64,000 nucleotides of DNA from Promethearchaeota archaeon (lineage in GTDB: Archaea; Asgardarchaeota; Lokiarchaeia; Sigyniarchaeales; SOKP01): the NCBI GenBank assembly GCA_029838195.1, contig JALGVJ010000011.1:48044-112043 (forward strand), read 5' to 3'. The notes beneath the pieces are model-generated. The model did no database searches. It was given only the letters and a program-made list of their open reading frames with translations, and was not told where the DNA came from. Position 1 is the first letter of the stretch. Every line of letters starts with the position of its first letter. Below, piece by piece: positions 160 through 26,674 of the stretch. The position numbers were made by a program, and so were the translations under genes.

Positions 160-780
160 ATGAATTCTTCCTTGACATCTAAAGATGTATTTGACTTTGG
201 CTCAAGCCTTCTTCAGTTAAAAGTGGTATATTGGGGTCCCGGCGAATCGGGAAAAACCACGAGTTATAACGTGCTCAAAGAAGAGCTTCGTTCTAAGAAG
301 ATTTCTCGAAGTATATCCGTGGAAACCACCGATGGCAGAACGCTCTGGAAGGATTGCATGTATTTATCCTTTTCATTAAAGCTAAATAAGTTCACGTTTG
401 ATGTCGTCGTCCAGGTGGTCACGTGTACGGGTCAAGAACGGTTTCTCTCCACCCGGGAATACGTGTTAGATGGAGCTGATGGGATCGTTTTCGTGGCAGA
501 CTCCTCACCTTTAAAGCGAGAAGAAAACAAGCGGAGTTTTCGGGAACTCATGAGCTTCACGGCTTCGAATAACGTTCCTTACGTGGTTCAATTGAACAAG
601 CGGGATTTATCTGATGCGATTTCTGAAGAAGAGTTTAAAAAAGATCTGGAATTACCGGAGGAAAAAGCGTATCCGGACGGCACGTTGGTGGTATATCCTA
701 CCATTGCCACGGAAAAAGTCAATGTTTTATATTGTTTTAAAGACTTATTGGGGCTTATTTTATTTAAAAACTTCTTATGA
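160..780 (+). CDS. MglA-like small GTPase
   Basis: G1 GPGESGKTT, switch I DGRTLWKD (cf. MglA RTLFFD), TCTGQ in place of DxxG (cf. MglA TVPGQ), GADGIVFVADS, G4 NKRD. Confidence 0.88.
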   Translation: MNSSLTSKDVFDFGSSLLQLKVVYWGPGESGKTTSYNVLKEELRSKKISRSISVETTDGRTLWKDCMYLSFSLKLNKFTFDVVVQVVTCTGQERFLSTREYVLDGADGIVFVADSSPLKREENKRSFRELMSFTASNNVPYVVQLNKRDLSDAISEEEFKKDLELPEEKAYPDGTLVVYPTIATEKVNVLYCFKDLLGLILFKNFL

Positions 781-875
781 ATAAATACATGATTTTATAA
801 AGTTTTTTTATAATCTTTTTTCTATTTCATGATACCTATAATTCAGTAACTTAGAATTTTTTTTATTTATATAGT

Positions 876-1529
876 TTGACTAAAAACTTCAGATTAAATA
901 ATAATATTCAATTAATCATTTACCACCTCGAAAGAAAAATGCCTTCTCTCATAGAATATCCTTCATTAAGTTATAAGGCAAAAAAAAAGCTGAAAATTGA
1001 AATTCTTGACCATTCGTTCAGGAAATATAATTTTCTAATGGAATCCTTGAGCATCTCCCGATTTGCCAAAATTCTACACCATTCTTTTTCTGAACATGAT
1101 ATTTCTGAAATACAAGAAGTTTTAAATAATTTTTCCGATGATTGGAAACGATACAAGATTCGTTTTCAACTCACTACTAAATTATTACCCTTCCACGGAG
1201 AACCCCATTCAGTGCACGATTTGATGGAATATCGGTTCAATGTGTTACAGCAGCATTTAAAAGAACTATATCATATCGCTCCCATTTTCAATTTACAGCG
1301 GGCCACTCATAATGCAAAAGTATTATTAACAATGTTGGATCAAAAAAATTATTGTCCTGTCCTTAGCACGCAGTTGGCATTAATTTTATTTGTCACAGAC
1401 ACTCGAGACTCGTTGGTCAAGGAGGGTAAAAAGAAACCGATTTTACAAGTTAATATTCGGAATTTATGTAAAACTTCTGCTTACGCCTTTCATAGAGCAC
1501 GAAACAAGTTAGGAATAAGTCGATTTTAA
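876..1529 (+). CDS. Hypothetical protein with C-terminal TFIIB/cyclin-repeat-like helical domain (true start may be ATG 939)
   Basis: C-terminus A..LL..LD...QLALILFVTD...ILQVNIRNLCKTSAYAFHRARNKL follows the TFIIB second-repeat/HTH pattern; paralogous to 4946..5581. Confidence 0.55.
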   Translation: MTKNFRLNNNIQLIIYHLERKMPSLIEYPSLSYKAKKKLKIEILDHSFRKYNFLMESLSISRFAKILHHSFSEHDISEIQEVLNNFSDDWKRYKIRFQLTTKLLPFHGEPHSVHDLMEYRFNVLQQHLKELYHIAPIFNLQRATHNAKVLLTMLDQKNYCPVLSTQLALILFVTDTRDSLVKEGKKKPILQVNIRNLCKTSAYAFHRARNKLGISRF

Positions 1530-1607
1530 TCAACTTTGTCTTATTTTTATTCTTTATTTATAATTTTTCACATTTTTAGTCTTTAATGAAAAAATATCAC
1601 GTGATAT

Positions 1608-3644
1608 TTAAAAAAGCGTAACTAACTTTTCATATAAGAGAGATAAATACTGGAAAATTTTTTCATATTTTTCACTACTGATAGAGATGGATTCTCCTTG
1701 AAGTAATTTTTTGTAGAGTGATTCCACGTACTTGATATTGGAAATCGGTGTCAAACGTTTTTTTAACATGTATTCTAATCCCATGAACGTTTCGGCAAGG
1801 TTCATAGTATCGATTTTTTCGGGAGCGATATAAGAGGGAGGCTGACTGCCGTTGAAAAATTTCTTGAATAATAATTTCATGAGTAATCCTAATGCCAACA
1901 TCATGGTGCGAAAAGAGGGCTCATTCTCTCCTTGAGAAAAATATTTCTGACCCTGACAAAAAATGGATTTAACTTCTTCTAATTTATCGTAAATATCAGT
2001 ATTTTTTTCCCTCTCAGAATCCCTTTTTTCATGGACTTGCCGTGAGGTAGAAATACCATTAGAAATGGGTATTTCATAATTTTTTAATTGAGATAAGCGT
2101 TCTTGTAATTGTTTTATTTTTTGATCAATAGAGTTCATGTGGAATCGGAGCGATCGTTCAAGTTCTAACAATGAAGGGACTTTTGGAACTTCAGATTTCT
2201 TAAGAATTTTTTGCTCTATTGGAGATGAATTTTCTTGTAAAGATGGAGAATGTTTTTCTTTGATTTGAGGAGAGAGAGCAGGCTCTTGTTTGATTTGGAT
2301 GGGAGCGGATTCTTGAATGGATCCTTTTCCATTTGAGATGGTTTCATCAGCAAGATTAGAATCAGAATCTAAAGAATCAATATCAATGTGCTGAATTTCT
2401 AACTCAGGAAAAAAAGTTTTCATGTTATTTTCAAGATCATCTTTTTTAAGAAAAGATTTTCTCTTTTCTTTTTCTTTTTTAACACGTTCACGTTTCTTAT
2501 ACGTTAATTCTTGAGGAAAATAATCCTCTTTTGGAGTAAAATTATTAAGATATGTCGAGCTTGATAGGGAAGTAAAAATGGAATCTATTTTATTTGGAGC
2601 AAGACCTAATGATTGTAAAAAAGAGTGAAGATCAAGCACGTGAGCTTCGCAAGGAACAGATTTCAGCCATGTTCTTAAAAAATCTTCGGGCAATCCAAGT
2701 TTCCAATGATGTTGCCGCAAGTAGAGATATCGATTTTCGGGATTAATGAGAACCTTGTCTTCCAAATTTGCTGTATTTACATGTTCCAAACAGTATTCTT
2801 CCATGCAAGAAACGAACATTCGCTTGATAGTTGCTGGTAAATTTTTAAGGGCTCGATATTCCTCTCTATATTGCTGCAAAGGATCCTTTTTCTGAAGGAG
2901 TGGGTCACTTTTACTAATTTTTTCAATAGAAATGGAATCATCATCATTCAAAGAAGAAGCTTTTTTAAGAAGATGGCAAATACGGACATCATAAAAATGC
3001 TCCATAAACCTCAAGATTTTCTCTTGTTCATTCTCATCCTCATGGGATTTAGAAAGAAATTTTTGAATGCTTTTTATTGATTTTCCTTCATTTAACAAAA
3101 TAAAAATCTGTCCTGCTAAATTTTTGATTTTTAAAAGATCATCCCGTAGGAGGTCAAGAGTCGGACACCTTTCAATTATTTTTTTTTCAAACGATAAATC
3201 TCTCGCAATAAAATCGTAATTTAAAAATTTTTTAGTCTTCTTATTATAAAGAATGAGAGGTTGTGAAGTAAGATTTTCAGAAGTGGCAGAAGAAGGAGAT
3301 TGAATTGATGGAACAGCGAGTTTAGGGATAAGTTCTTTGGCATTTTCGCTGGTATTTAAGATGTAATGCAATGAAGGGTATTGCATGATTGCATAGATGT
3401 CTTTTAGATTTAGATTGTAGATGAGATAGAAATTGGGGATCGTGGAGTAGACATTCGCTTCTAAAATGTCATTCACGCTGGTTAGAGCCGTCGCATCGAT
3501 GGGAATGAATGTATATCCTACGGTAAAAATCTCTAAAGCATTTAAGTATTTTAAGTCCACGTGGGGATAAATGAGCACGTTCCTCTGCTTGAAAAAAATT
3601 AAGTGTAGAAATTGGGCCGTGATGAAGTCGCTTTCCGTGTCCAT
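1608..3644 (-). CDS. Large hypothetical protein with low-complexity linker, coiled coil and possible C-terminal HEPN-like helical bundle
   Basis: 678-aa ORF; C-terminal GQKYFSQGENEPSFRTMMLALGLLMKLLF resembles the HEPN N-terminal helix pattern; no Rx4-6H seen. Confidence 0.6.
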   Translation of the reverse strand: MDTESDFITAQFLHLIFFKQRNVLIYPHVDLKYLNALEIFTVGYTFIPIDATALTSVNDILEANVYSTIPNFYLIYNLNLKDIYAIMQYPSLHYILNTSENAKELIPKLAVPSIQSPSSATSENLTSQPLILYNKKTKKFLNYDFIARDLSFEKKIIERCPTLDLLRDDLLKIKNLAGQIFILLNEGKSIKSIQKFLSKSHEDENEQEKILRFMEHFYDVRICHLLKKASSLNDDDSISIEKISKSDPLLQKKDPLQQYREEYRALKNLPATIKRMFVSCMEEYCLEHVNTANLEDKVLINPENRYLYLRQHHWKLGLPEDFLRTWLKSVPCEAHVLDLHSFLQSLGLAPNKIDSIFTSLSSSTYLNNFTPKEDYFPQELTYKKRERVKKEKEKRKSFLKKDDLENNMKTFFPELEIQHIDIDSLDSDSNLADETISNGKGSIQESAPIQIKQEPALSPQIKEKHSPSLQENSSPIEQKILKKSEVPKVPSLLELERSLRFHMNSIDQKIKQLQERLSQLKNYEIPISNGISTSRQVHEKRDSEREKNTDIYDKLEEVKSIFCQGQKYFSQGENEPSFRTMMLALGLLMKLLFKKFFNGSQPPSYIAPEKIDTMNLAETFMGLEYMLKKRLTPISNIKYVESLYKKLLQGESISISSEKYEKIFQYLSLLYEKLVTLF

Positions 3645-3752
3645 GATAAAAATAATATTTTGATATCTTAGTTCTTTTATCTTTAAAATTCAACGGATCT
3701 TTAAAAAGAAAAAATTTATTTTAGCTTCTAAGACTAATTTCTAAAATAATTT

Positions 3753-4853
3753 TTATATTGATTTATTCGAGAAAATCTCATCTAATGTAAGCTGAACATG
3801 CTTGGATTTTTTTCTGAATGTTTCAAACGCAGAAATACAAGAATGATATTTATTAATTAACTTATTTAAATTGTTTTCTACTCGAGCTTGATTGAGATGA
3901 TGGTCTTTACAAAGAAAGGCACGCACTTTTTCTCTTATGGGAGCCGTCCAAGTGAACGGTTCTTTTGGCGTGATTACTTCAGGAAAGAGAAAAATGTTCC
4001 GAACCTTAAAAATTATTTCAGGCGTGAGAGAGGAGAAATAATAATTTTTATTTCTTTCACGGTCAATGATATTTTCAAGTGTTTCATGAGCTTTTATTAA
4101 TTTCAAGGCGGTTTTTGATCCAACATGTTTGATGCCCGGAAAATAATCCGTTTTTAATAATAAGACTAAATCAATGAGTTGAAAGTAATTAATTCCCATT
4201 AATTTAAGGCTTTTCTTGAGGTCATATAACTTAGGCTCAATTTTTTGATAAACCCATTTATTTTTGATCTTTCTTCTCATGGACTTTGTTAAATTCTGAA
4301 TGACGTGAGGACTTCCGAACAAGAGCGAATCAAAATCTTGAGAGTTCATGTAATCCACGAGATGACTTTTTACTAAATGAGCACATTGAGCTTCAGCGGA
4401 AGAAGGAGATTCAATATAAGGTACACCCAATAAACTTAATAAAATTTTAGATTCTTCTACAACGGAAGGCCATAAAAATTCCTTGCTCAATCCGATTTGA
4501 CGAGCTGTTTTCCAATCCTTGTTTTTTAAGGCTTTTTCGTGCATGCGTTTCGCATATCGGAAGTCATTGAGTTGATCTTTAGTAATGATGCGTTTTAACT
4601 CCGAGACTTTGCCATCAAAACAAAACACAGGAAGAATCCGCTTTGAATACAAGAATAAAATCTTGTATAAAATTCCATAAAGGTGATTGATGACTCGCTG
4701 CGTTCTGTCAATGAATAAGGAATCGGTATTCTTAGCAGTGAAATTTAACGTGCTAAATAAAAAATTAGGAGTATCAATTGCAATGACTGTTCCTTCCAAG
4801 GAGGTGAGAGAAATAGGTTCAGCATGGAGTAGGTCAGCAATTTTCACTCCCAT
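3753..4853 (-). CDS. fen: Flap endonuclease-1/XPG family nuclease, divergent
   Basis: MGV start, AIDxxN, PVFCFDG, AEAQCA, SQDFDSLLFG, TDYFPGIKHVG (H3TH), C-terminal PIP box QLTLDEIF. Confidence 0.92.
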   Translation of the reverse strand: MGVKIADLLHAEPISLTSLEGTVIAIDTPNFLFSTLNFTAKNTDSLFIDRTQRVINHLYGILYKILFLYSKRILPVFCFDGKVSELKRIITKDQLNDFRYAKRMHEKALKNKDWKTARQIGLSKEFLWPSVVEESKILLSLLGVPYIESPSSAEAQCAHLVKSHLVDYMNSQDFDSLLFGSPHVIQNLTKSMRRKIKNKWVYQKIEPKLYDLKKSLKLMGINYFQLIDLVLLLKTDYFPGIKHVGSKTALKLIKAHETLENIIDRERNKNYYFSSLTPEIIFKVRNIFLFPEVITPKEPFTWTAPIREKVRAFLCKDHHLNQARVENNLNKLINKYHSCISAFETFRKKSKHVQLTLDEIFSNKSI

Positions 4854-4945
4854 GACCTATCTGTTTTATCCTCATATTTAAAGAAAAAATCAGTATTAGG
4901 GAAAAATCATTTTTATTTAAATAAATTTAATGAGTAGTTAAGAGG

Positions 4946-5581
4946 ATGATGGAAAATGTAAATTATATTGAAAAAAAATTTCATGAAAACAATGTTAATG
5001 GAAATTTTATAAACCTTGGTGCGACTGATTTCAACCAAGAAATAGATAAACATGATGTAATAAATGTTCTATTACGTTATTTCTCTATTCCTGTCCTTAG
5101 AGCTTCTTCTAACCGCATGAAAACAGCAATGGTATCATTTTTAGCTCGAATTCTTAATAAAAATAAATCATGGATTCGTGATTCTATAAACGAATTTTTA
5201 GAAAACTGCCAATCGTTTAAAGAGATTCTAAAACAAGAATTAAAAAAGTTGAAATTGGACGGATGCTTCGACCCCATCGAAACGCACATTAACCTCTTGA
5301 ATCGCTTTCTCGAACAACTTCATTCCTTTACAAATGCGTTCGATATGGAACGTGCCAAGATAAACATGTTAATCCTCATTGATAAATTAGACGCTAAATC
5401 TAAGTTCATGCCTCTTTTTAACCTAAACATTCATCTTGCTTTTTTGATATATATTACCGATGTTAAGGATTACGAGGTTTTGAGAGCTAATATTTCTCCT
5501 CTTAAGTTAGAAAATATTTGCTACATGACAAATTGTAAAGAAAAACAATTGTTTCAATTAAAGGCGATCCTTTCTCCTTAA
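4946..5581 (+). CDS. Hypothetical protein with C-terminal TFIIB/cyclin-repeat-like domain, paralog of 876..1529
   Basis: FDMERAKINMLILIDKLD...HLAFLIYITD aligns with FNLQRATHNAKVLLTMLD...QLALILFVTD. Confidence 0.55.
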   Translation: MMENVNYIEKKFHENNVNGNFINLGATDFNQEIDKHDVINVLLRYFSIPVLRASSNRMKTAMVSFLARILNKNKSWIRDSINEFLENCQSFKEILKQELKKLKLDGCFDPIETHINLLNRFLEQLHSFTNAFDMERAKINMLILIDKLDAKSKFMPLFNLNIHLAFLIYITDVKDYEVLRANISPLKLENICYMTNCKEKQLFQLKAILSP

Positions 5582-5609
5582 AGTCAATTAAAGGCGATCC
5601 TTTCTCCTT
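5554..5609. repeat. Perfect 26-bp tandem direct repeat (period 30) across the stop of 4946..5581
   Basis: tcaattaaaggcgatcctttctcctt at 5554-5579 and 5584-5609. Confidence 0.95.
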
Positions 5610-5648
5610 GAAAAAACTCATTTTATCTAATTATATTTATTACTTAAA

Positions 5649-6404
5649 CTATGGCAAATAAAAGGTAATGCCTTGATCAGTAATTTCAAATTTTAACGAA
5701 ATCTTTTTCTCATTATAATGGATGATTAACCTTCTAAGCCTACCATGTGAATGAGCTTCCATGAGATGAGGTGGAAAAAGCTCAAGAGTCACTCCCTTTA
5801 TCCTCTCAAATAAAGAGGAATAAAAAACATTATCCTGAGAAGTAGTCGGATTCGTAGAAAACTCATGAATGAGAAATACAAGAATATTTTTAAATGAACA
5901 ATAAAATAAGAGAGGCACCAATTGCTTTTCAAAAAAATCATTAATAATAACTTCTCTTATATTCATGTCCTCTTCCATGGATAAACGCAATCGCAAGTGA
6001 TGAGAGATGTTATCCACGACCATACATTTGAGATAAGGAATATTAGGCAAGTATTTTTCAAGAAGTCCTTGAAAAAGTAATTCTTGTTTTTCATATGAAA
6101 GGAGGACAGAACGAGCCGGAAAAATGAAAAAGCGCTCATGAAGGGATGAAGATTTATTATTATAAAATATTTCTAATTGTTTGAGTCGCTTAACGGGAAA
6201 ATGTTCGGAAGCTTGAATCCACGCGCACGCATGACGTGATCCGAGTAAATGATAGACTAAATAGAGAACAAGATTAGTTTTTCCGCTTCCTGCTTTCCCC
6301 TTTACATGAATGACATTTTCTCTTTTTAAAATAAGAGAAATAATTTCCAAGAGGTCTTTTTCATTCAAAATCTTTAAACTTCTTTTTTCTTTTTTTCGAG
6401 CCAT
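5649..6404 (-). CDS. RecA-fold ATPase, RadB/aRadC-like RadA paralog
   Basis: Walker A GKAGSGKT, WIQASEHFPVKRL (cf. DTE..F..RL), Walker B VVDNIS, C-terminal FEITDQGI; no N-terminal RadA HhH domain. Confidence 0.85.
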   Translation of the reverse strand: MARKKEKRSLKILNEKDLLEIISLILKRENVIHVKGKAGSGKTNLVLYLVYHLLGSRHACAWIQASEHFPVKRLKQLEIFYNNKSSSLHERFFIFPARSVLLSYEKQELLFQGLLEKYLPNIPYLKCMVVDNISHHLRLRLSMEEDMNIREVIINDFFEKQLVPLLFYCSFKNILVFLIHEFSTNPTTSQDNVFYSSLFERIKGVTLELFPPHLMEAHSHGRLRRLIIHYNEKKISLKFEITDQGITFYLP

Positions 6405-6762
6405 TATTATTTTCTCTTAAAGCTTGTAAAACCCTTTTCTCAAGATTATCATGAGATCTGTTAGGCAAGATAATAGTATTATCACGCTTGGAAGAATTGT
6501 TTTCCGCATTTTTAAGGTTCATGGCTAATAACATTAAGGGTAACCATTTATCCGTTCCATCAGAAGAATTTCCTTTTATTTTCAAGTGTTTTTTGTATTT
6601 CACGAACAGGAAATAGACGATAATGACGCACGTGATATAAATGACATATTGGGGATTGGTTTGAATGAACACGATTAAGAACATTATCAAGATTAGATAG
6701 AATAAACATTTAAATGTCATTTTTTTGATACTACCTCCTGTATAGTATTTAAATACATTCAT
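6361..6762 (-). CDS. Small membrane protein (2 TM), overlapping the RadB-like gene
   Basis: Two hydrophobic N-terminal segments and a polar tail; same strand and overlapping 5649..6404. Confidence 0.6.
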   Translation of the reverse strand: MNVFKYYTGGSIKKMTFKCLFYLILIMFLIVFIQTNPQYVIYITCVIIVYFLFVKYKKHLKIKGNSSDGTDKWLPLMLLAMNLKNAENNSSKRDNTIILPNRSHDNLEKRVLQALRENNNGSKKRKKKFKDFE

Positions 6763-7343
6763 TCTATATAAAGAAAAAAAGTTCTATCACGCAAATAGAA
6801 GAAAAAATACCCAATTGAACAATGTTTATTTTCTTATGAGAAATTGTATTAAAGAAAAGATTTTATAGAATTGGTTTAATTTAATATAGATCAATCAGTT
6901 TTTGGAAATATTTTTTATTCAATATGCCAAAAAAATGGAAAAAATAAAAGAAAATTATTATTAAACCGTTTTCCTTAAGGATTCAAAAAAGCTCATATTA
7001 TTAAAATTCTAATATTTCACGATGTCTTTCTACACCTAATATTTTGAGAGAAGAACCCAAATTCTCACCAAGATCATCAAATCAAGAAGAGAAGAATTAC
7101 ATTAAGAAGCCTAATTAATTCTGGATTTTGGAAGAGTGTATATTTATATTTAAGAAATGAATTAATGATTAACACATTTAAAAGAATAGCTTTAATTTAA
7201 AAAATTTTGATCTCAAAACAAGCCCAAAAGTGATCAACACTTTTTGTGAGATTGATTTTTTGCTAAATATTGTTCATTTATTAGGACATTAAATGAAATA
7301 ATTCCATCATAAATATAAAGGATATTAAAAATGAGGTCAAAAC

Positions 7344-7358
7344 CGTAAAGTTTAAAAG
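7344..7358 (+). promoter_or_regulatory. Putative BRE-TATA of the TFB paralog
   Basis: cgtaaag-TTTAAAAG about 60 nt upstream of ATG 7417. Confidence 0.4.
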
Positions 7359-7416
7359 GCACACTCCCCCCAGTATATTTCCTTAAGAAAAAATGTAAAA
7401 TGAGTTGTAATAAAAA

Positions 7417-8808
7417 ATGGCATCTAAAACTAATAAAAATTTGGTTTTTACGGAATTCTTAACTTGTGATATTTGTGGCTCGACTGATATTGTCGAAACA
7501 ATGGAAGGTTATACCTGTAGAAATTGCGGTATTGTACTCAACATGCAACGTTTAGAATATCACAGGCCATATAACGAAGCTTGTTTACAGCACGCACCTC
7601 TTAATTCAACCCAAATTGGAACTAAACAAGAACGCTTGAATCATACAAGATCTCCCCATTTACAGAGATTAAATAAACTTCATTCTATTTCCTCGATATC
7701 AAATGAAAAATTTATAATTGAAACCGCCAGAAAAGAAATCTCTCGTCTTTTAGAGATTCTTGGTTATTCTACTTCGGAGATGAATCAAGATATCTTGAAA
7801 AATGTTAAAACTATTTGGCAAAAAATAGAAAAAGGAACAAAATTTAGAAATGTTGAGAAATTAATCCCTGCCGTGATCTACGTTTATTTTAAGATTAAAT
7901 GCCTCTTCATTAATTGGTCCAAACTTTTAGAGAATTCTAAACTCTCGAAAGAAGAATTTCGCGCTGCTTTAATGACCGTCATTCGATTTCTAGACCATGA
8001 GGTGAGAATTGCTTATCTCAAGGGAACGAGAAAACGATATTGCGAGCGAAAAATTTTACGAATAGCAGAAGAATTTGGTTTGGGAATGGACTTTTATCAT
8101 CAAGCCGTGGCGCTCATGTATAAATTATGGAACATTATTCAAAATACGAAAGAAGATGTCATCGTGGGAGTAACATGCAGTCTCATTGCTCTCACATCCG
8201 CTTATCGAGAGAAAATTTCTGTTTCTAAAATATGCTCTTATGTAGGCATTCAGATGTCCACTGTTCAAAGTCAGGTAAAAAAACGCATCATTGAGAGGTT
8301 CAAGATTCCCGGATTTATAAGTCTTGTTAAATCTGCAAACCTCATTGAAAAAATCTTAAAAAAATTGGGCATTTTAAAAGAAAAACTCACTCATCGGAGA
8401 CAGAAAAAAATTCATGATGATGAGAAACAAGCTGAAGAGAAACAAGATATCAAAAGAAATTCGGAGATTAGTTTAGAAGAAGAGGAGAAGGATGCCATTA
8501 GAATAATTAAATCATTTGAATTAGAATTCATGGTTTCAAAAAATAATAACGCCAAAAAGGCATGTTATATTTTAAAGAGCAGTAATGGAAAACACGGATA
8601 TTTATTGTTACTTGATGAAAACGATAAAAAACAAGGTCATTTTCAAGGCTTTAAAAAACGATTTCAGAAAAAATCAATTAGATTAGTAAATCATCAAACA
8701 AAATTTTTTAATAATCCCTTGATACAAGTTAATGCGATTTTAAAATTTAAAACGGGTAAAGGACCTCCTGAAAAAGAACATATAATTTCATTTCACTTCA
8801 TCAGATAA
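7417..8808 (+). CDS. tfb: Transcription factor TFB/TFIIB paralog with long C-terminal extension
   Basis: Zn ribbon CDICGS...CRNCGIV, two cyclin-like repeats (RNVEKLIPAVIY; ISVSKICSYVGIQMSTV HTH), ~140-aa tail containing GKGPP. Confidence 0.8.
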   Translation: MASKTNKNLVFTEFLTCDICGSTDIVETMEGYTCRNCGIVLNMQRLEYHRPYNEACLQHAPLNSTQIGTKQERLNHTRSPHLQRLNKLHSISSISNEKFIIETARKEISRLLEILGYSTSEMNQDILKNVKTIWQKIEKGTKFRNVEKLIPAVIYVYFKIKCLFINWSKLLENSKLSKEEFRAALMTVIRFLDHEVRIAYLKGTRKRYCERKILRIAEEFGLGMDFYHQAVALMYKLWNIIQNTKEDVIVGVTCSLIALTSAYREKISVSKICSYVGIQMSTVQSQVKKRIIERFKIPGFISLVKSANLIEKILKKLGILKEKLTHRRQKKIHDDEKQAEEKQDIKRNSEISLEEEEKDAIRIIKSFELEFMVSKNNNAKKACYILKSSNGKHGYLLLLDENDKKQGHFQGFKKRFQKKSIRLVNHQTKFFNNPLIQVNAILKFKTGKGPPEKEHIISFHFIR

Positions 8809-9125: not shown

Positions 9126-9386
9126 ATTCTTTTTTAGGAGCGTATAATTTTTAATAATTATTTTAAATGATTATTAGGTAACCATCAACTTTCAAATGAT
9201 TTTTTTAAAAGAAATATCGGGAACTATTTTTTTAACTATTTTTTATTTAAATATGATTGATGATCTTATTTTATTGCTAATCAAAAAGTATTCCTAAAAA
9301 CAGAAGGGAGGTGATGGACTCGAAACGTGCTGGGAATATTTTTTGGGCTTCTTTTTTTTTTATTATTGTTATATCTTGTTGCCACT

Positions 9387-12300
9387 TTATTTTTGAGAAG
9401 TCAAGGATGGGTATTGCTTTTCAAAAAATTCATTAAACAATTTAACATTTTTATAAGAATTAGTAATAGAGTCCCATTCTAATGTAGTTAGAGGGTTATA
9501 TTGTTTTAATTCTTTTTCTGAAAAAGGAAGGATTTCAGGAACATCAATAAGATCCGTGAGAAACATAAATTTTTTTATTCCCATGGAGATGAGTACTTGT
9601 TCGAAGGAGGAAATAAGATCTTTGAGGTCCGTGCCCATTGGAATCCAAAAAGAGATAAAAAACCCTTGGAAAAGCGTGAATTTTTGATCACCATAAACGT
9701 AAGACTTTCCTGAAATCTCTTTAATAAATCCAAAATTAAAATATTGAAAAATGGAGATTAATAAATTCTTTTTATCCTTAGGAATGTTTAAAATAAGAAG
9801 GTGAATTTCTTCCGATAAATTTAAATTTTTCAAGTTCATGTAGGGATGAATCAATTTTTTTTTTAATAGAAGGGATAATGCGTCATGTTGTTCTTTCGAG
9901 CATTTATCTGGAGTAAAAATAAAAGAAGATAAGTCTTTAGGTGTTAATCCATGAACTTTTAATAGAGCAGAAAATTCTTCTGAATTTGGAGGATAAACAT
10001 CATTAGAAGGGTATAATGAAAAAGCATGATGCTCGCGGTGTTCACGGTGCTTCTCTGTTAATATGAGGTTAGCGTGGGCTCGAAAATTTTCCGTATTAAT
10101 CCTCCATTCTCCTGCGCTGAAATTATGATCGAAATTGAATATTTCGTGAATGACTTCAGTTTTGAAAAGAATGCATTCTTTTATGGCTTTTTTTGAAAAT
10201 AACAACCACTTTAAATAGCTCAGATTGGGCAAGTCTTGGGGAAATAAATAGGAGATAAAAAACATTGCATCAGGACAATATTCCGCCGCTGAAATTTGAA
10301 CGGTTTGAAAAGTATTGGATAATAATAATTTAAAATCAAGTGTTTCAGGAGAAGTGTCTATAACCCTAATATATAAATAATATTGTTCCAAGCTAAACGC
10401 TTTATAATTTGTGAAAAAAAGAAGGGATTGCAAGTGCGATTGTAATGTTTTTATTAAATTTTCATAATGAAATGGTTTTTTTAAAATATCCTTTAGATTT
10501 TCTCTAATTATTCTTAATTCTCGAATTATATCCATTGATATTAAATGATACTTGTTTTCATTTTCTTTTTGAAGCTTTAAAACACACGCTTGTAATTTTT
10601 CATTATTTAATGCCATCAGATTGTCGTAAACGGAAGGGAAATGGGCTTGAAAATGGTTAATCTTGGGTAAAGAAGAGAGATTTGTAATATTGTTCGCTTT
10701 CAATAAATATTTGACGTATTTATTGAGTTCCTTGAATAAAGAAGCATCGTAAATGAATTCTTTTTTACCAAAATCGTAGAAATTATGGCTTGTTTGAAAA
10801 GAAAAAAATCCATCTGAAATTCCACGATAATAAAATTTAATATCTTTTCCAAAATAATTCAAAAAAAACAAAAACCATTCTTTTTTATTTGAAAGAACGG
10901 AAAGATAACCTCCAATTTGTTTTTCCTTATTATTTTTAAATATAGAAACAAGTAAACGAGGGATTAATTTATTAAATTGAGTTAATTTCTGATTAAAAGA
11001 ATTAAAATTATCAGGAGAGAGAATTGCATCAAATATATATTGACAAAAATGGCTTACTGATAAGGTGTTAATAAAAAAAGGCGCTATTACTTTATTTTTA
11101 AGATATTTTTCATAGAGATGGGTGAGATATTTAATAGTAATTTTACCACTTAAATTTTCTTCTTGAATTTTTTTTAAATATATATTTTTCTGAATTAAAA
11201 ATTTTTGAAATATAGGGGGTTTTCGGATATATTGAATCACGGTATTAACATCAAAGACATTTAATGCTTCTAAGGATGTAATAAAATTGAATAATAAATC
11301 AATCTGTGATTTATCTTGAATATCCGATAAAAAAGGTAAGTTTTTTGAAATTAAAAAATCCGTATTTTTTAAGCATGCTAATTCCATGATGATGTTTTTT
11401 TGTTTTTTTCCCTTTTTTTGAATCAAAGTTTCAAAAGAAGGGGATTCAGAAAAATCTTTTAATAAACATATTATTTCTTTTAAATGAAAAAAACCACCTT
11501 TAACTGATTTTAAAATGGAAAAAAAAAAGGAGCGAACATATTTATTATTTACAATGCCATCATGTCCCAATTTCAAATTCATAAGATTGCTCTTTAAACT
11601 ACTTAAAGCTTCATTTAAATACTTTTGTAGCGTAATAATAGCATCTTTTATATAAGATTGAAAAGAAAACCCCGAAGGCCCCCAATTATTTAATCGATTT
11701 AAAAAAGTATATTCTATTAAATTTAATGAGAGATCTGATTGGTTATTACGTTTAAATTTTCTCTTCAAAATGAATCGATTTTCTATTAATTTCTCTTGAA
11801 TTAATTTATTTAAGAATTCATGATAGTTCATTTTAAAATAGTTTAAATTCAAGCAGTTTTCTGTTTCAATGCTCTCTTTCAAAGAATAGGAGCAAATATT
11901 TAATTTATTTAATTGAATTAAAAATTGTTTTAAATCTCCTACAAATGTGGAGGGAATTACGAAAAATCCCCAATATCGATTTTCTAAAGAATTTAACACT
12001 TGATAATTATATCCATAAAAGGGCATATGTTGTATAATTTTTTTAGGAATTGAATTTAGCAAGGAAGGATGGAATTGAAAAAAACAATAAAAGACCTTTA
12101 TTCCAATTCTCGACCAATCGATAAAATAAGAAGGAGAAAGAGGAGAATATTGAATTAATCTTAAGTTTTTACTAAATTTGCGTAAAGAAAGAGAAGTGTT
12201 AATTTTTCCTACGGATTTATATTCTTTAAATAAAGATTTATATTCTTCATTTGAGGTAAAAATTTTTTTATTGTAAAAAATTTGGGATAAAGCCCAAATA

Positions 12301-13031
12301 GTTTCGATTAACTCTTGATTCCCGTGCATGTTCTTAAAGAAATCCCGAATTTGATCCTTGAATATTAAATCATAAAATTGATCGTTAATGGCAGAAATTT
12401 TATCTCCATGAAGTTGAAAATACTGAAGTATAGCACGTTCATTAGAACTCACATCATTGGATAATGGAACGTCTTGGAACCATTTGTGTAAAAATAAAGC
12501 GGAATATTCTCCTGAAAATAAAGACAATGCTTCTTGGTTCATGTATGCTGCATCCAATTCGTTGAAAAAAGACTTGGGAAGAAATCTTAATTTTTTTAAT
12601 TGAGCTATAGAAAGATGATATAGAGTTAAGGAAATTACCATTAAATGGGATAATTCTGGAGGTATGAAACAATAATAAATTTCTCGTATTAAGATAAAAG
12701 GTAAAAATGGAATCATGGTTTCTGGAATACGGATTTCATGAAGTTCCATTCCCTTTAAATCGTTTATAACTTTTCTGATAATTCCAAAATCCATTAAATT
12801 TAAATTTAAATTTAAACCATTTTCTTTCACATCTGGTGCATTAGAATTAGAAATAAATACAAATTTAACATGATGGAAGGTTTTTAAAGGATCCAATTCT
12901 TTCTTTTTAATTTCTAAGATTTTATTAAAACTTTTTTCGAGAAAACAGCTATCTATTTCAGCAGCCTGCTCTTTTATTTTCTCCAAAATAAATTTTAGAT
13001 CGTTTTCTAAATCTTTTACTTCATTAAGCAT
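9387..13031 (-). CDS. 1214-aa hypothetical protein with repeated Lrp/AsnC-like modules
   Basis: Recurring motif IDWSRIGIKVFYCF / NYKAFSLEQYYLYI / NLKNLNLSEEIHLL, typical of the Lrp HTH-to-RAM junction. Confidence 0.6.
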   Translation of the reverse strand: MLNEVKDLENDLKFILEKIKEQAAEIDSCFLEKSFNKILEIKKKELDPLKTFHHVKFVFISNSNAPDVKENGLNLNLNLMDFGIIRKVINDLKGMELHEIRIPETMIPFLPFILIREIYYCFIPPELSHLMVISLTLYHLSIAQLKKLRFLPKSFFNELDAAYMNQEALSLFSGEYSALFLHKWFQDVPLSNDVSSNERAILQYFQLHGDKISAINDQFYDLIFKDQIRDFFKNMHGNQELIETIWALSQIFYNKKIFTSNEEYKSLFKEYKSVGKINTSLSLRKFSKNLRLIQYSPLSPSYFIDWSRIGIKVFYCFFQFHPSLLNSIPKKIIQHMPFYGYNYQVLNSLENRYWGFFVIPSTFVGDLKQFLIQLNKLNICSYSLKESIETENCLNLNYFKMNYHEFLNKLIQEKLIENRFILKRKFKRNNQSDLSLNLIEYTFLNRLNNWGPSGFSFQSYIKDAIITLQKYLNEALSSLKSNLMNLKLGHDGIVNNKYVRSFFFSILKSVKGGFFHLKEIICLLKDFSESPSFETLIQKKGKKQKNIIMELACLKNTDFLISKNLPFLSDIQDKSQIDLLFNFITSLEALNVFDVNTVIQYIRKPPIFQKFLIQKNIYLKKIQEENLSGKITIKYLTHLYEKYLKNKVIAPFFINTLSVSHFCQYIFDAILSPDNFNSFNQKLTQFNKLIPRLLVSIFKNNKEKQIGGYLSVLSNKKEWFLFFLNYFGKDIKFYYRGISDGFFSFQTSHNFYDFGKKEFIYDASLFKELNKYVKYLLKANNITNLSSLPKINHFQAHFPSVYDNLMALNNEKLQACVLKLQKENENKYHLISMDIIRELRIIRENLKDILKKPFHYENLIKTLQSHLQSLLFFTNYKAFSLEQYYLYIRVIDTSPETLDFKLLLSNTFQTVQISAAEYCPDAMFFISYLFPQDLPNLSYLKWLLFSKKAIKECILFKTEVIHEIFNFDHNFSAGEWRINTENFRAHANLILTEKHREHREHHAFSLYPSNDVYPPNSEEFSALLKVHGLTPKDLSSFIFTPDKCSKEQHDALSLLLKKKLIHPYMNLKNLNLSEEIHLLILNIPKDKKNLLISIFQYFNFGFIKEISGKSYVYGDQKFTLFQGFFISFWIPMGTDLKDLISSFEQVLISMGIKKFMFLTDLIDVPEILPFSEKELKQYNPLTTLEWDSITNSYKNVKLFNEFFEKQYPSLTSQK

Positions 13032-13521
13032 GGTAAATTCTAATCTTTAAAAATTATCTTGCCCGTTAATTCTTATATTAACCTTTATTAAAATGATTTA
13101 TAAATGTTTTCTTCTATTATTTTTTCTATATTTTTTTTATTATATTTTCTATTTTCTTTTTATAAAAACTTCTTATAATTCTTCACGGTAACCAAAAGAA
13201 TAAAATTTAAGCGCCATTTTGATTAGGAGATTTTTTAAATTTCAAAAAAGAGAGAAAGAAGAAAAAGATAAAAAATAATGAATTTCTTAATGAAGATCAT
13301 ATAAAAAATAGATTCCTTCTAATAACGGATAATTCGAAAGATTAAATAAAAATATACTTGATAGAAACTCATTATTTTGATATATTGTTTTGTTATTCTA
13401 TTTATGGAAAAAATTTTCTTTAAAATGGAACATCTAATTTTTTTTCATTTAAATAATAAGAGTAAAAAAAAGATTCAATAAAGGAATAATGAAGAAAAAA
13501 TAAAATAAAAAGGGAATTATC

Positions 13522-13743
13522 ATGATATTAGATTATTATTCTCGTGTTTTAGATGGTGTAGAATTTCTCATTGCCGTTGGCTCTCTCGTGGGCCTTTTTG
13601 GTGTTATCATTGGATTTATTTTATTCATTTTTGGTTCTACTAGATACCGTTTACGTATTTTATTTTTTATTATTATTAGTTGTCTATTATTAATCGCATG
13701 TGGATGGGCCACTGGTTTACGTTATTTTCATATTCGAATATAA
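13522..13743 (+). CDS. Small 2-TM membrane protein
   Basis: 73 aa, two hydrophobic helices joined by a basic loop (STRYRLR); purine-rich sequence upstream. Confidence 0.65.
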   Translation: MILDYYSRVLDGVEFLIAVGSLVGLFGVIIGFILFIFGSTRYRLRILFFIIISCLLLIACGWATGLRYFHIRI

Positions 13744-14389
13744 ATCAATTTTTTATTTATATAGATTTATCGTCTTAGTATTATAGATCTAAATTCATTA
13801 ATAATTCTTCCTGAGTCCGTGGATAAGATGAGTATTAAATTAAAAAATACAAATAAATCTACTAAAAAATCATCATTAAATGTTAAACATTCTTTCTCAG
13901 AAAAAAATAAAACAAGAAAAAACCAAGAGAAAATTTTTTTTTTAGACTTAACAATAATTTTTGAAACTTGTCGCTATTATATTGAAGGGAAGAAAATAAA
14001 AGCATCTAATATTAAATATTTAATCCGATTACAAAATTCTCCTCGAAAAAAGAATCTGCCCCCTTTTTTTAATTATTTACTTCATGAATTTTTAAATAAT
14101 AGAATAAAATCCAGATAATTCTTTTTTTAAAATTTGCTTAATTTGATTTTTAATTTCTTTTGGAGCATTACTAAATTCCGAGCCAATTGAAAAATCAATT
14201 ATTTTCTTAAATTCTTCTCTTTTCTTTATTTTTTTAATTTTTTCTATATTCTTCTTTTTAATAGAAGAAGAATAGATAAGAATATATTGAGAAAAAGCAA
14301 AAATTTCCGCCTAATTGCAAGCTGACAAGAGTGTTTAAAAATGGGAACATTCAAATTGAATATACGCCTACTAAATTTGACCGAAAAAA

Positions 14390-14602: not shown

Positions 14603-15214
14603 TTGTATTTATTATTTTTTTTATTACTCATGCTAATTAAGCATGTATCACGGGCCTAATTAAGGGAGAACTTTTTTTTGATTTAAATTGTTTCGAGCAT
14701 TTATGATCCATCTCTCGCTTTTTTCCACAATGATCGCCCCCTAATTTTTGACACGTGCGGCTTGTTTTTTCATAGTACGTGCAGGTAGCATTATATTTAC
14801 ATTTCATTTATCTTAATACCCTCTTTTTTTTAATTCTATTTTAATCATTAATAATTGCAATATAAAATGCAATAGTAATTATTCATGAATTTATTTAAAG
14901 GAAAAATTTTTTTAAAAACGTGCTCCGTGAAAGGATTTCTCAATACAATGAATTAATCTTGCTTTTTTTCTTACTTTTTATTATTTTAGTTTAATAAAAA
15001 GCATAAATTAATAACAGGAAGGAAAAAAAAGGAGGGAGGAGATTGAAAAAGATGGACTAAAAAAAATAATATTATTAAGATATGAAAATATTAATTTTAA
15101 TTTTAAATTTTTAAAAATTTTGCGATGGAGAATTTCTTTTTATTTAAATAAACAAGATGATAAATATATATAATCTAATTAAAAAATAATTAAATTTAAG
15201 AACTACAGGAAAAA

Positions 15215-15418
15215 ATGGAAGAAAACATGATTATTGATGATTGGATGGATTTTTCCAATATTAAAAAAATGGACCGGAATACCTATGAAATCTCGGGAAT
15301 AGTGTGGGAGAAAACGTGGACTGAGGACGAGGAATTTATTGATCAATTTGTTGAAATTTTAGATCAATATAAAGGGAAAAAAATTAAGGTTAATATAAAG
15401 ATAGAACTCCAATCCTAA
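15215..15418 (+). CDS. Small acidic hypothetical protein
   Basis: 67-aa ORF with protein-like composition; TATA-like aatatata upstream. Confidence 0.55.
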   Translation: MEENMIIDDWMDFSNIKKMDRNTYEISGIVWEKTWTEDEEFIDQFVEILDQYKGKKIKVNIKIELQS

Positions 15419-15816: not shown

Positions 15817-15993
15817 TAAGCTTCTCCTCTTTTGGTGGAATTCTTGAGAAGATGAGATACAAATTATCTATTATTTTAAAAAAGTTTGAAATGCGAGAAG
15901 AAATAATAAGAAATCTTTTTTTTAATCAATTTTGAATTTTTTCTTTCCTCATTTTTTATTTAAATAGATTGGTTGAAAAAGGGTTCTTAATCG

Positions 15994-16086: not shown

Positions 16087-17322
16087 ATGACCTTACAAGT
16101 TAAATCCGTGTCAAGTTTTCGTTTTGATGAGTTATTTCATGACTATATTAATCAATTTCATGAAAATCTCTATCATGTCATTCCTGATGTGAAAAGTGGT
16201 TCTACATTACCATTACAATTAGTTAGGAACTCTCCCGTGAAAAAATATAATCCTATTATTCAAGCAGCTTCTCCCGATCATGCTCAAGAAATCGTGAACA
16301 TCTACAGAGATATTTACGGAAACACGTATCCGTATAAGGAAATGACGGACGTAGAAGAGGTCAGACGAATGTTGAAAAATAAGGATTATACCTTCATCTT
16401 ATTTAAGGATAAAAATGATATCATAATGGGTTGCTTCACGTTCGTGTTTGATTTTGTCCATCGCCGAGCCTACATGCGGGGATATAACGTGAAACGGAAA
16501 TATCAGAAGTATTTTGACGTGGTAAAAGGGTTCATTGGATCACTTCTTGCCATGATTCATGAGCATCAAGATCGAATATTGATGTGGTATGCGGAAAATC
16601 GAACGGCACATTCTGCCTCACAATATTTTTGTCAAGTAGCCGGCGTGAAAAACGTGGCGTTTCTTCCTAATAAAGATATTTTTTTAAATAAAATTGAATC
16701 TGACATGATGCACGTGGGTTATCACGAGACCATGCTAAAAACCTTGCGATCATCTCGCTTTTTTTGCATTCTTCCGGAAGTCGTGCCGTGTTTTACCTTC
16801 ATTTCTCAACGATATTCCTTTCTTGCCCATTCAATTAATGTTGTAAACCCCGATTTATTCCTAGATCACATCCGAGTTCATGAAAATGTTCATCGTATAA
16901 CAAGATGCATGAAAATGGATGCGTTCGGACATGTGACGTTTACCTTTAAAATTAGGGGTTCTGACAGCTTTTTAAAAGGTTTGTATACCTCTACCATAAA
17001 AAACATGGAAAAAATTAAATATCACGCGGAGTCTTTGGAAGAATTATCCGCATTCTTAATCCATCTGCAACATTTAAGAGAATCTTTAGGCGTGCGATAC
17101 GTGGAGTGCATGGTATCGGCTCGAGAACCATTGCATCAGCGGATATTTTTAAACCACGGATTTTATCCCAGGGGATACATGCCCTCATGGGAATTTGATG
17201 AAGACGAAAAGAAATTTTACGATTGCATTCTATTTAATTGGTTCCTTCCTCCTCTTGCTCCCGATTTAAAACTGATAGATGAGGGGTGGATGTTATTACG
17301 CTATTTGAACTTTATTAATTGA
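16087..17322 (+). CDS. Tandem GNAT-fold acetyltransferase-like protein
   Basis: IYRDIYGNTYPYKE, ENRTAH..SQ, C-terminal QRIFLNHGFYPRGYMP. Confidence 0.7.
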   Translation: MTLQVKSVSSFRFDELFHDYINQFHENLYHVIPDVKSGSTLPLQLVRNSPVKKYNPIIQAASPDHAQEIVNIYRDIYGNTYPYKEMTDVEEVRRMLKNKDYTFILFKDKNDIIMGCFTFVFDFVHRRAYMRGYNVKRKYQKYFDVVKGFIGSLLAMIHEHQDRILMWYAENRTAHSASQYFCQVAGVKNVAFLPNKDIFLNKIESDMMHVGYHETMLKTLRSSRFFCILPEVVPCFTFISQRYSFLAHSINVVNPDLFLDHIRVHENVHRITRCMKMDAFGHVTFTFKIRGSDSFLKGLYTSTIKNMEKIKYHAESLEELSAFLIHLQHLRESLGVRYVECMVSAREPLHQRIFLNHGFYPRGYMPSWEFDEDEKKFYDCILFNWFLPPLAPDLKLIDEGWMLLRYLNFIN

Positions 17323-22095: not shown

Positions 22096-23016
22096 TCAAC
22101 GTTCGATGATCTTCTTTAATTGAACCTTAAACTCTTCGATATACGAATCATTTATTTGCTCATTATCATTTTTAAGTAGAATCAAGTAATAAATCATATC
22201 CAATCCGTCAAAATGGAGTTGTTTAAAAATGAAAAACCTTCCATTATATTCAATAATCATATCTTTAGCAGGTTCGGAAAACTTTTCTTCAGAAGATACG
22301 AAAGAATCATTTAAAAATAATAAATAAGCCATTGACTTATAAAGAATGTTTTTAATTTCTTCAGAAACGTGAAATTCCGCCACGATTAAAGAGTTATCAT
22401 CTAATAAGATGGCCCCTTGCGCATTCATGGCGATAGACAATTTTTCGATTTGTTCATTTATTAATCCAGATTTTGGATGGAGTTCTAAAAAGATCTCAGA
22501 CATCACTCGAATTAAATGTTCAAAATCATAAATTGAGGTTTTATAATAATGAATTTTGTCATAACGTGTTTCTTCAATAATTTTTGATTTAATATAATTG
22601 CATCTCTTTTCAAACTCTTTCTCATGGATCTCTTTCAATTGAGGGTCATATTTATGAAAAAAAATGTAAATAATCGGGTGTAAATTTAAAGCCGTGTATT
22701 TTAATAAAATCTCTTTAAAATAAGCAAGAGATTCCGGAATTCTCTCTTCATTCTGAATATCGATGGTATATATACATATCGCTGTATTATCAAGAAACTT
22801 ATCAGGATTATTTAAATAGGTGATACGAAAGGACGTTTGTCCTCCTAAGTCATGTTCAATTATTTTTTCTCCGAAAAATGAGAAGATCCTTCTCTCAATC
22901 CCTCTTGTAGGTCTGAGATAGGCAATCTTAGATAATTCTCTTTTAAGTACTAAAATAATGGACGTCTTTCCTGCATCATCTAATCCCATGAATACGATTT
23001 TTTTCAATGGATACAC
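22096..23016 (-). CDS. Rag/Arf-like small GTPase with C-terminal roadblock/longin-like domain
   Basis: GLDDAGKT, PTRG, DLGGQ, HKYD (Rag-type G4), TSIYD, C-terminal GAILLDDNSLIV; GTG start. Confidence 0.88.
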   Translation of the reverse strand: MYPLKKIVFMGLDDAGKTSIILVLKRELSKIAYLRPTRGIERRIFSFFGEKIIEHDLGGQTSFRITYLNNPDKFLDNTAICIYTIDIQNEERIPESLAYFKEILLKYTALNLHPIIYIFFHKYDPQLKEIHEKEFEKRCNYIKSKIIEETRYDKIHYYKTSIYDFEHLIRVMSEIFLELHPKSGLINEQIEKLSIAMNAQGAILLDDNSLIVAEFHVSEEIKNILYKSMAYLLFLNDSFVSSEEKFSEPAKDMIIEYNGRFFIFKQLHFDGLDMIYYLILLKNDNEQINDSYIEEFKVQLKKIIER

Positions 23017-25714: not shown

Positions 25715-26674
25715 ATGAGCATCCCTCATCTTGGTGTGAAAAAAAAAGAGGCTGAGGAATCCGAGAAGATTCTATTCACGGGTTTAGATAATGCCGGGAA
25801 AACAACAATCATTTATGCATTACAACGCGAATTTTCGAAAATAGCTCTTTTAAAACCTACAAGAGGCGCGCAGAGACGCATTTTTGATTTTTTAGGTAAA
25901 GAGATTGGTGAATGGGACCTTGGAGGACAATTAAAATACCGTATTAGTTATTTAAAGAATCCAAGCAAGTATTTTGATAAAACTTCAATTTGTATATATG
26001 TCATAGATATCTTGGCAAAATCACGCTATAGAGAATCCATCGATTATTTAAAAGATGTCATTAAAAAATTCGAAGAATTTAAAATTTCGCCTCCTGTATA
26101 TATTTTACTTCATAAATATGATCCTGCCCTAGTGAAATCCGCCGCAAATAAGATGAAAACGTTAGAGCAAGACATTAAAACGATGGTTAAAAAAGACATT
26201 AATTATGACAAGATCTTTTTTTATAATACCACGATATTTGACTTACCCCATATTATTCACGTGATGTCAGAAATTTACTTGAATTTATATCCTAAATCTG
26301 AATTAATAGATAAGCTTATTAAGGATTTTGCCATTAAAGTGTTAGCAAATGGAGTGGAAATCATTGACAACAATTCCTTAATTATTGGTTCGTATTATGA
26401 TAATGAGGAAACAAAGAGCTTAACCTCTCGTTCTAACCCTTATTTTCTAACTTTAAATGAATCTTTTAAAAAAGGAGAAGGAAGGGGAATGAGTACTGAA
26501 ATGAGAAACCATATTTTAGTCCAACGATTTCAAAAATATTTCATTTTCAAGGAAATATCTCTTGGTTCGGAAACGCCCCCCTATTATCTGTTAATTTTGA
26601 AAAACAATCCTAATTTTAACATTGAGGATTTTGAATCGCTCGCTAATTTATTAAAAGAGATATTATACAAGTGA
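25715..26674 (+). CDS. Rag/Arf-like small GTPase with roadblock/longin-like domain, close paralog of 22096..23016
   Basis: GLDNAGKT, PTRG, WDLGGQ, HKYD, TTIFD, IIDNNSLII. Confidence 0.88.
   Translation: MSIPHLGVKKKEAEESEKILFTGLDNAGKTTIIYALQREFSKIALLKPTRGAQRRIFDFLGKEIGEWDLGGQLKYRISYLKNPSKYFDKTSICIYVIDILAKSRYRESIDYLKDVIKKFEEFKISPPVYILLHKYDPALVKSAANKMKTLEQDIKTMVKKDINYDKIFFYNTTIFDLPHIIHVMSEIYLNLYPKSELIDKLIKDFAIKVLANGVEIIDNNSLIIGSYYDNEETKSLTSRSNPYFLTLNESFKKGEGRGMSTEMRNHILVQRFQKYFIFKEISLGSETPPYYLLILKNNPNFNIEDFESLANLLKEILYK

Follow-up and report, generated by a model that had tools for sequence, protein, structure and literature searches.

A conserved chromosomal island of Asgard archaea that joins a second recombination toolkit to a VirB4-like membrane module, with a candidate TFB switch in Lokiarchaeia

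The DNA considered here (the window) is a stretch of 64 000 nt from a Lokiarchaeia genome of 4.5 Mb, corresponding to positions 48044–112043 of its contig. A preliminary description had proposed that 8.7 kb near the start of the window form a candidate DNA-processing module with an alternative TFB, and all eight open reading frames (ORFs) claimed there are real and lie where they had been placed. These 8.7 kb are nevertheless no unit by themselves, but the right end of a larger island, which spans 1.7–65.4 kb of the contig and so reaches ~46 kb further left, before the window begins, and 8.5 kb further right, to window position 17322. Its size is ~64 kb here, whereas the islands of relatives measure about 45 kb. 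It is a real and conserved feature, and no description of it was found in the searchable literature, subscription journals not being covered. On balance, we favour the view that it is a chromosomal, vertically inherited and domesticated Ced-like island of Asgard archaea, which would serve cell-to-cell DNA exchange and homologous recombination, and to which Lokiarchaeia would have added a TFB switch with its own T-tract promoter. This view is taken because the conserved core of the island joins a strand-exchange kit to a conjugation-type membrane scaffold.

The core that is conserved across Asgard classes consists of RadA, Hel308, FEN and a VirB4-like protein, often encoded in one gene run. The VirB4-like family occurs in 129 of 301 Asgard genomes, and several Asgard families gave no match to it. 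In Thorarchaeota, the VirB4-like neighbours are RadA, Hel308, a RadB-like protein and a second FEN (Hel308 and FEN in 4/4 long loci, with RadA too in three), and in Freyarchaeum the same recombination set is accompanied by an MglA–roadblock pair. Parts of the set also lie beside the VirB4-like gene in Hel-, Jord-, Baldr- and Borrarchaea. In both Thorarchaeota and Freyarchaeum, a canonical FEN1 is encoded away from the island. The FENs of the islands branch outside the clade of FEN1, but their branches are long, on account of which their common origin is not proven. The island is present in the cultured P. syntrophicum MK-D1, at C1:1.73–1.76 Mb, complete with TFB (DSAG12_02155) and FEN (DSAG12_02146). 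Being common to at least six Asgard lineages, and to a cultured member, it is open to experiment, and it supplies candidate genes for DNA exchange and recombination in the closest relatives of eukaryotes.

Within Promethearchaeota, the clustering of island genes is kept in about 65 genomes. Relatives mostly have the genes in the order FEN, solo cyclin, RPA, roadblock, MglA and a 390-aa protein, with TFB transcribed divergently from a peptidase, a membrane gene, RadB and RadA; of 31 long loci, between 13 and 27 have a given one of these neighbours no further than 10 kb from FEN. The opposite island end is a four-gene membrane operon encoding a helix–hairpin–helix (HhH) protein, two membrane proteins and a 1300-aa protein. 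In the present genome, the gene order is rearranged relative to that usual in the family. To the left of the window are genes for roadblock, RPA, a Zn-ribbon protein, a RadA paralog and a 1612-aa surface protein, whilst the left part further contains Hef- and Hel308-type helicases, a solo ERCC4/XPF protein, a HEXXH membrane protein, small membrane hairpins and the 1300-aa membrane protein. The island therefore holds a second recombination toolkit, made up of RadA, RadB-like, RPA, FEN1, XPF, Hef and Hel308. Housekeeping genes for RadA, RadB, RPA, Hef and XPF lie elsewhere in the genome and, with the exception of the Hel308-type helicase, every DNA enzyme checked has a clear housekeeping second copy; another Ski2-family helicase, of unassigned type, is encoded in the genome, which may thus have no Hel308 besides that of the island. 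It had been considered beforehand that the FEN1 and TFB of the window might be the sole housekeeping copies, which they are not, as canonical TFBs and FEN1, along with RadA and RadB, are found elsewhere. Two partial extra copies of the island are present on contigs C49 and C50, one of which could be a binning artefact, because the contamination score of the genome is 7.9 %.

The 1300-aa protein is the basis for comparing the membrane module with conjugation systems. In its language-model features it resembles HerA/TrwB/CedB clusters, and its structural model, with a predicted local distance difference test (pLDDT) score of 82, has as its best match the whole VirB4 of plasmid R388, including the N-terminal domain (Foldseek E 1.7e-16; Z 25.8, 626 aligned residues and a root-mean-square deviation of 13.4 Å for the whole chain). 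The ATPase domain alone superimposes on VirB4 with Z 24.5 and a deviation of 4.0 Å. Three conserved membrane proteins of the module have no family match, and a 73-aa two-helix hairpin is pilin-like in size and topology only, without sequence match to the VirB2/CedA1 pilin. In the extra island copies (L040:7608-9644 on C49; L231:5577), the VirB4-like gene has for a neighbour a HerA-like ATPase whose Walker A is intact, possibly a motor or the mark of a more mobile variant. In the membrane-anchored HhH protein (L081:747-2699), the central pattern looks, by eye only, like a degenerate PD-(D/E)XK nuclease domain.

That the window encodes a full Zn-ribbon TFB paralog is borne out on several counts. 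Cysteines C17, C20, C34 and C37 of the ribbon are invariant (the match to PF08271 being weak), profile comparison with the canonical TFBs of the genome by hhalign reaches a probability of 98.8 % (E 9e-17, 261 columns, ~18 % identity) across both cyclin repeats, and the best PDB matches are TFIIB/TFB. The cyclin repeats score under the Pfam PF00382 threshold, and the B-reader region aligns to its canonical counterpart but is shorter and different. Within the helix that reads the TFB-recognition element (BRE), the canonical TQ...TEVT.R.R has become VS...MSTIQSQ. When mapped on 1d3u, the positions equivalent to P. woesei TFB Q268, V280 and R283, which we take to be the BRE-reading residues, are S/N/K, an invariant S and Q/H/N/Y, respectively. 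The new helix is itself conserved among the paralogs, which are present in 80 of 101 family genomes; eight canonical TFBs are encoded elsewhere in the present genome. In Borrarchaeum, a different divergent TFB (L269:6234-7592), with Zn ribbon, TFIIB repeat and winged helix, lies about 3 kb from a VirB4-like gene, and is possibly an independent recruitment of a TFB.

An unbiased word comparison between island and flanking upstream regions yielded one motif, which on the gene strand reads TTTTTT(C/A)TTTA(A/T)ATA and amounts to an archaeal TATA box with a T-tract at the usual position of the purine-rich BRE. It lies mostly 40–80 bp upstream of gene starts and occurs in 474 of 578 island upstream regions from Lokiarchaeia (including homologous loci, which are not independent of one another), compared with 8 % of 383 controls. 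The 64-kb island contains 26 strong sites, as against 1 for the remaining 46 kb of the contig, and the eight exact matches in the window are all within its first 16 kb. Upstream of the TFB paralog itself, the motif is found in just 12 % of regions; its promoter instead has a purine-rich BRE, a TATA box and a conserved ACTCC box 3′ of it in 19 of 24 relatives, and the two top matches to this pattern in the genome both belong to TFB-paralog genes. As an island-specific T-tract promoter is accompanied by replacement of all three BRE-reading residues in the TFB, a sigma-like switch is likely in Lokiarchaeia, and we think it probable, from the sequences, that the TFB paralog recognises the T-tract. 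The preliminary description had suggested a sigma-factor-like programme for damage-induced recombination, DNA uptake or a developmental state. The island-specific promoter and rewired BRE helix lend weight to such a programme, and the uptake or exchange option gains from the VirB4-fold protein, encoded outside the 8.7 kb; no link between the island and DNA damage was seen in the present analysis. T-tract promoters also precede a ThiF-family gene pair (L073:8302-10530) and an MFS-like gene (L234:5369-6706), which are possible further members of the regulon.

Amongst the remaining proteins, the PIP-box FEN1 with altered catalytic residues proves to be altered family-wide. Its XPG-N and XPG-I domains are present and six of seven metal-binding acids are kept but, across 65 homologues, the equivalent of E158 is lost in 64 and that of Y40 in all, and R100 is kept in only 17. 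The canonical FEN1, found elsewhere in 24/24 family genomes, keeps all three. The C-terminal PIP-like QxTLD is retained, and nuclease activity is predicted to be reduced or altered. The FEN paralog of the window scores 273 bits against a TIGR03674 cut-off of 352. The RecA-fold ATPase is, as described, coupled to a small membrane gene, which it overlaps; it lacks the N-terminal domain and is RadB-like (TIGR02237 E 1e-8, 35 bits against a cut-off of 172), with a separate RadB-like gene on contig C3. The two ORFs described as solo TFIIB-repeat proteins are indeed mutual paralogs (E 7e-8). Each of 14 relatives has a single copy, usually directly 3′ of the FEN gene, and the second ORF is thus a local duplication. 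An AlphaFold model of the first (pLDDT 86) contains one cyclin repeat at residues 110–217, and its seven best matches in a wide structural search are all TFIIB/Brf/TFB (Z 6.4–7.7). As Z remains under 8, and neither hhalign profile comparison with TFB nor Foldseek gave anything significant, the case for a TFIIB-like repeat is a moderate one. The MglA-type GTPase carries the expected motifs and adjoins a roadblock gene, assigned from pattern and position with no Pfam match; the pair is kept in 26–27 of 31 long loci, and in Freyarchaeum also. Missing from the inventory given previously were this roadblock partner and a 678-aa island gene between the solo ORFs.

As to how the island is passed on, all genera are recovered in the tree of the FEN paralogs, which runs parallel to that of FEN1 (within-family rho 0.73; 0/2000 permutations), the paralogs evolving twice as fast as FEN1. 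No tyrosine integrase (PF00589 only) was found near five islands in five genomes, and the GC content of the island is as that of the genome, with slightly higher GC at third codon positions (0.35 vs 0.31). Four genomes, 95–99 % complete, have none of the markers tested (TFB, FEN and RadA paralogs, solo cyclin, VirB4-like and roadblock genes), and one of them keeps a truncated border gene (G006:C70:4669-6269, L235), likely a deletion scar. In line with an absent island, their motif counts are at background level, with 2, 6, 4 and 3 copies, compared with 2, 2, 3 and 1 in controls. Because the FEN tree is host-like, no integrase is near, GC is that of the host and the markers are lost jointly, the island is one of vertical descent with block losses, and not a currently mobile element; its origin likely lies in an ancient conjugative element. 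A Loki-type island fragment with T-tract promoters was seen in a genome of another Asgard family (G259:C266, L250), owing to mis-binning or transfer, and fragments in bins labelled Patescibacteria and Anoxychlamydiales (L109, L122) are most likely mis-binned contigs.

From these elements, a course of events may be proposed for Lokiarchaeia. A signal would induce the TFB paralog from its ordinary-type promoter, which is seen upstream of the gene, and the TFB, with TBP and RNA polymerase, would then set its altered helix-turn-helix on the T-tract and turn on 20–25 island units. The VirB4-fold pseudo-ATPase, three co-transcribed membrane proteins (one of them a HhH DNA-binding protein), the hairpins, the HEXXH peptidase and the surface protein could assemble into a contact or transfer site, positioned by MglA–roadblock, as their observed folds and clustering would allow. 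Going by the families involved, helicases and nucleases would generate single strands for RPA to coat, the RadB-like protein would help to load the RadA paralog, and flaps would finally be trimmed by XPF and the PCNA-binding FEN paralog. The solo cyclin gene has a T-tract promoter of its own and, more speculatively, its product may act at TBP as a co-factor or as a competitor that provides feedback. One could go further and see an ancestral Asgard mating programme, with domesticated conjugation scaffold, contact proteins, polarity switch and second recombinase set for regulated chromosome exchange, a prokaryotic analogue of specialised, meiosis-like recombination, under a sigma-like TFB in Lokiarchaeia; we regard this extension as tentative and rather doubtful.

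A number of observations weigh against a TFB-switched exchange island. Strict motif copies average 10.5 per genome where the TFB paralog is present and 6.7 where it is not (reversed control, 3.9 vs 3.2), a modest excess in a contrast confounded by assembly gaps and kinship, several of the negatives still holding island genes. Just a looser T-rich promoter variant is visible in MK-D1, and the island TFB has no detectable copy in Thorarchaeota or Freyarchaeum, even though islands are present there. The canonical BRE of the family is not cleanly derivable, tRNA promoters having given none (ARAGORN missed most tRNAs), and the T-tract could be read by one of the eight canonical TFBs or by a separate regulator. 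As Walker A is present in 0/45 VirB4-like sequences, the modelled VirB4-like protein is probably a scaffold and not the motor of the module. No match to VirB6/CedA, pilin or ComEC was detected among island proteins, and searches of the unassigned ones for pilin, CedA, VirB6, phage and defence families were empty or weak, an absence which excludes nothing. The island might be co-regulated by way of a T-tract that serves a canonical TFB or is an operator for another regulator, with the TFB paralog as a passenger or TFB3-like co-activator: eight more TFBs are available, TFB-negative genomes still carry motif copies, and the island persists in other Asgard classes, where this TFB is absent. We consider this improbable, given that the T-tract abuts the TATA box at the site of the second TFB repeat, that the BRE helix of the paralog is changed and conserved anew, and that its own promoter alone is without the tract. 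Moreover, island genes other than the TFB are still present in many TFB-negative genomes, a sign of assembly gaps.

The purpose of the island may also be read otherwise. It could govern a TFB-switched developmental or stress state, such as encystment, dormancy or remodelling, in which the scaffold exports or places envelope proteins and the DNA kit serves to protect or repair the cell's own chromosome, with no foreign DNA involved. An alternative initiation factor, a polarity GTPase, a HEXXH peptidase, and large surface as well as many small membrane proteins would all be in keeping with such a state, as would the catalytically weakened appearance of the VirB4-like protein and the FEN paralog. 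However, transfer is a better explanation for a strand-exchange kit that goes with a conjugation-type fold across Asgard classes, and no coat or spore-like family was found, which makes a developmental role unlikely in our estimation. An active or recent conjugative element or provirus, with its own replication and recombination genes and a late-type transcription factor, is very unlikely. It would explain the VirB4 fold, patchy presence within genera, twofold faster evolution and the extra partial copies, some beside a HerA-type ATPase with intact Walker A, but for the main copy it is largely refuted by the host-congruent tree, host-like GC and lack of an integrase nearby. In addition, no structural phage family was identified among ten proteins tested, and the same core recurs across classes.

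Known systems resemble the proposed exchange island in part. In Sulfolobales, a DNA-exchange response comprising Ups and Ced is controlled by TFB3 (PMC6101594, PMC11868833), a truncated protein without the C-terminal helix-turn-helix that acts with TFB1 (PMC6101594). The likeness to Ced/Ted is that a TFB paralog is linked to a VirB4-like module which lies in the chromosome without an integrase and has small membrane proteins of two helices; homologous recombination would come next. Unlike TFB3, the island TFB is not shortened, and its new BRE helix has a promoter type to match; and unlike Ced, the VirB4-like protein is without Walker A, no CedA/VirB6 or Ups pilus is recognised, and the block also holds a duplicate recombination kit and MglA–roadblock. 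Multiple TFB paralogs of haloarchaea have been proposed to direct gene subsets (PMC2396416). The island TFB differs from these in being only ~18 % identical to canonical TFBs, in lying inside its presumed regulon, and in a BRE of pyrimidines and not purines. The haloarchaeal paralogs are close to one another and their promoters overlap. Streptococcal ComX (SigX) is likewise an alternative initiation factor with a private promoter, its competence regulon including an HhH uptake protein, an SF2 helicase, a single-strand binding protein and a recombinase. The likeness is one of logic only, as no sequence homology to ComX, ComEC or DprA was found, and the membrane machine of the island is VirB4-like, as opposed to a type IV pilus with ComEC. 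The roadblock gene directly before an MglA-type GTPase recalls the MglA–MglB polarity module but is embedded in a recombination operon, and its role in polarity is putative. For the old question of an archaeal TFB acting as a sigma factor, the changed BRE helix, new promoter class and defined regulon provide a sharp test. The features of the island that lie within the window are collected in Table 1.

Table 1. Island genes and promoters located in the window (coordinates are window positions)
Feature	Position	Strand	Remarks
MglA-type small GTPase	160..780	+	second of roadblock–MglA pair; roadblock ends about 20 bp upstream, mostly outside window
T-tract/TATA island promoter	856..875	+	motif match, before solo cyclin gene 876..1529
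Solo cyclin-repeat protein (predicted)	876..1529	+	helical N-domain and one TFIIB-like repeat; probable start ATG 939
Island protein, fold unassigned (678 aa)	1608..3644	-	conserved over N-terminal ~330 aa; as a rule co-transcribed, following MglA
T-tract/TATA island promoter	3698..3717	-	motif match
Second, divergent FEN1/XPG nuclease	3753..4853	-	PIP-like tail; E158, Y40, R100 equivalents changed
T-tract/TATA island promoter, FEN paralog	4873..4892	-	motif match
T-tract/TATA island promoter, divergent partner of FEN promoter	4906..4925	+	motif match
Second solo cyclin-repeat protein (predicted)	4946..5581	+	local duplicate, present genome only
RadB-like RecA-fold ATPase	5649..6404	-	Walker A intact
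Small N-terminally anchored membrane protein	6361..6762	-	coupled to RadB-like gene; probable start ATG 6717
T-tract/TATA island promoter	6763..6782	-	motif match
TFB paralog promoter	7341..7370	+	purine-rich BRE, TATA, ACTCC box; no T-tract
Full-length divergent TFB, 463 aa	7417..8808	+	Zn ribbon, two cyclin repeats, rewired BRE helix, ~140-aa tail ending KGPP
T-tract/TATA site	9236..9255	+	before 51-codon hydrophobic ORF 9327-9482
73-aa two-helix membrane hairpin, island family	13522..13743	+	T-tract promoter 13438-13457
Three small ORFs	13819-14118, 14637-14807, 15215-15418	+, -, +	each behind T-tract site
GNAT-like island family protein	16087..17322	+	T-tract promoter 15949-15968; right island border

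Weak Pfam matches to SPO22 (E 0.08) and MEIOB (E 0.05) were dismissed as noise. A 227-aa protein (L039:16790-17473) has a conserved FFGQK/WEKP N-domain and no solved-structure match; as a guess, it may bind single-stranded DNA. Its gene, lying upstream, was ruled out as island-specific, with 1–5 copies in 68/68 family genomes. Inserted within the island, at window positions 9387-13031 on the reverse strand, is the gene for a 1214-aa protein that matches no family; it has no T-tract promoter, and a homologue adjoins a second partial island copy in another genome (G024, L075). Beyond the island, the window also encodes two Rag/Arf-like small GTPases, at 22096-23016 and 25715-26674.

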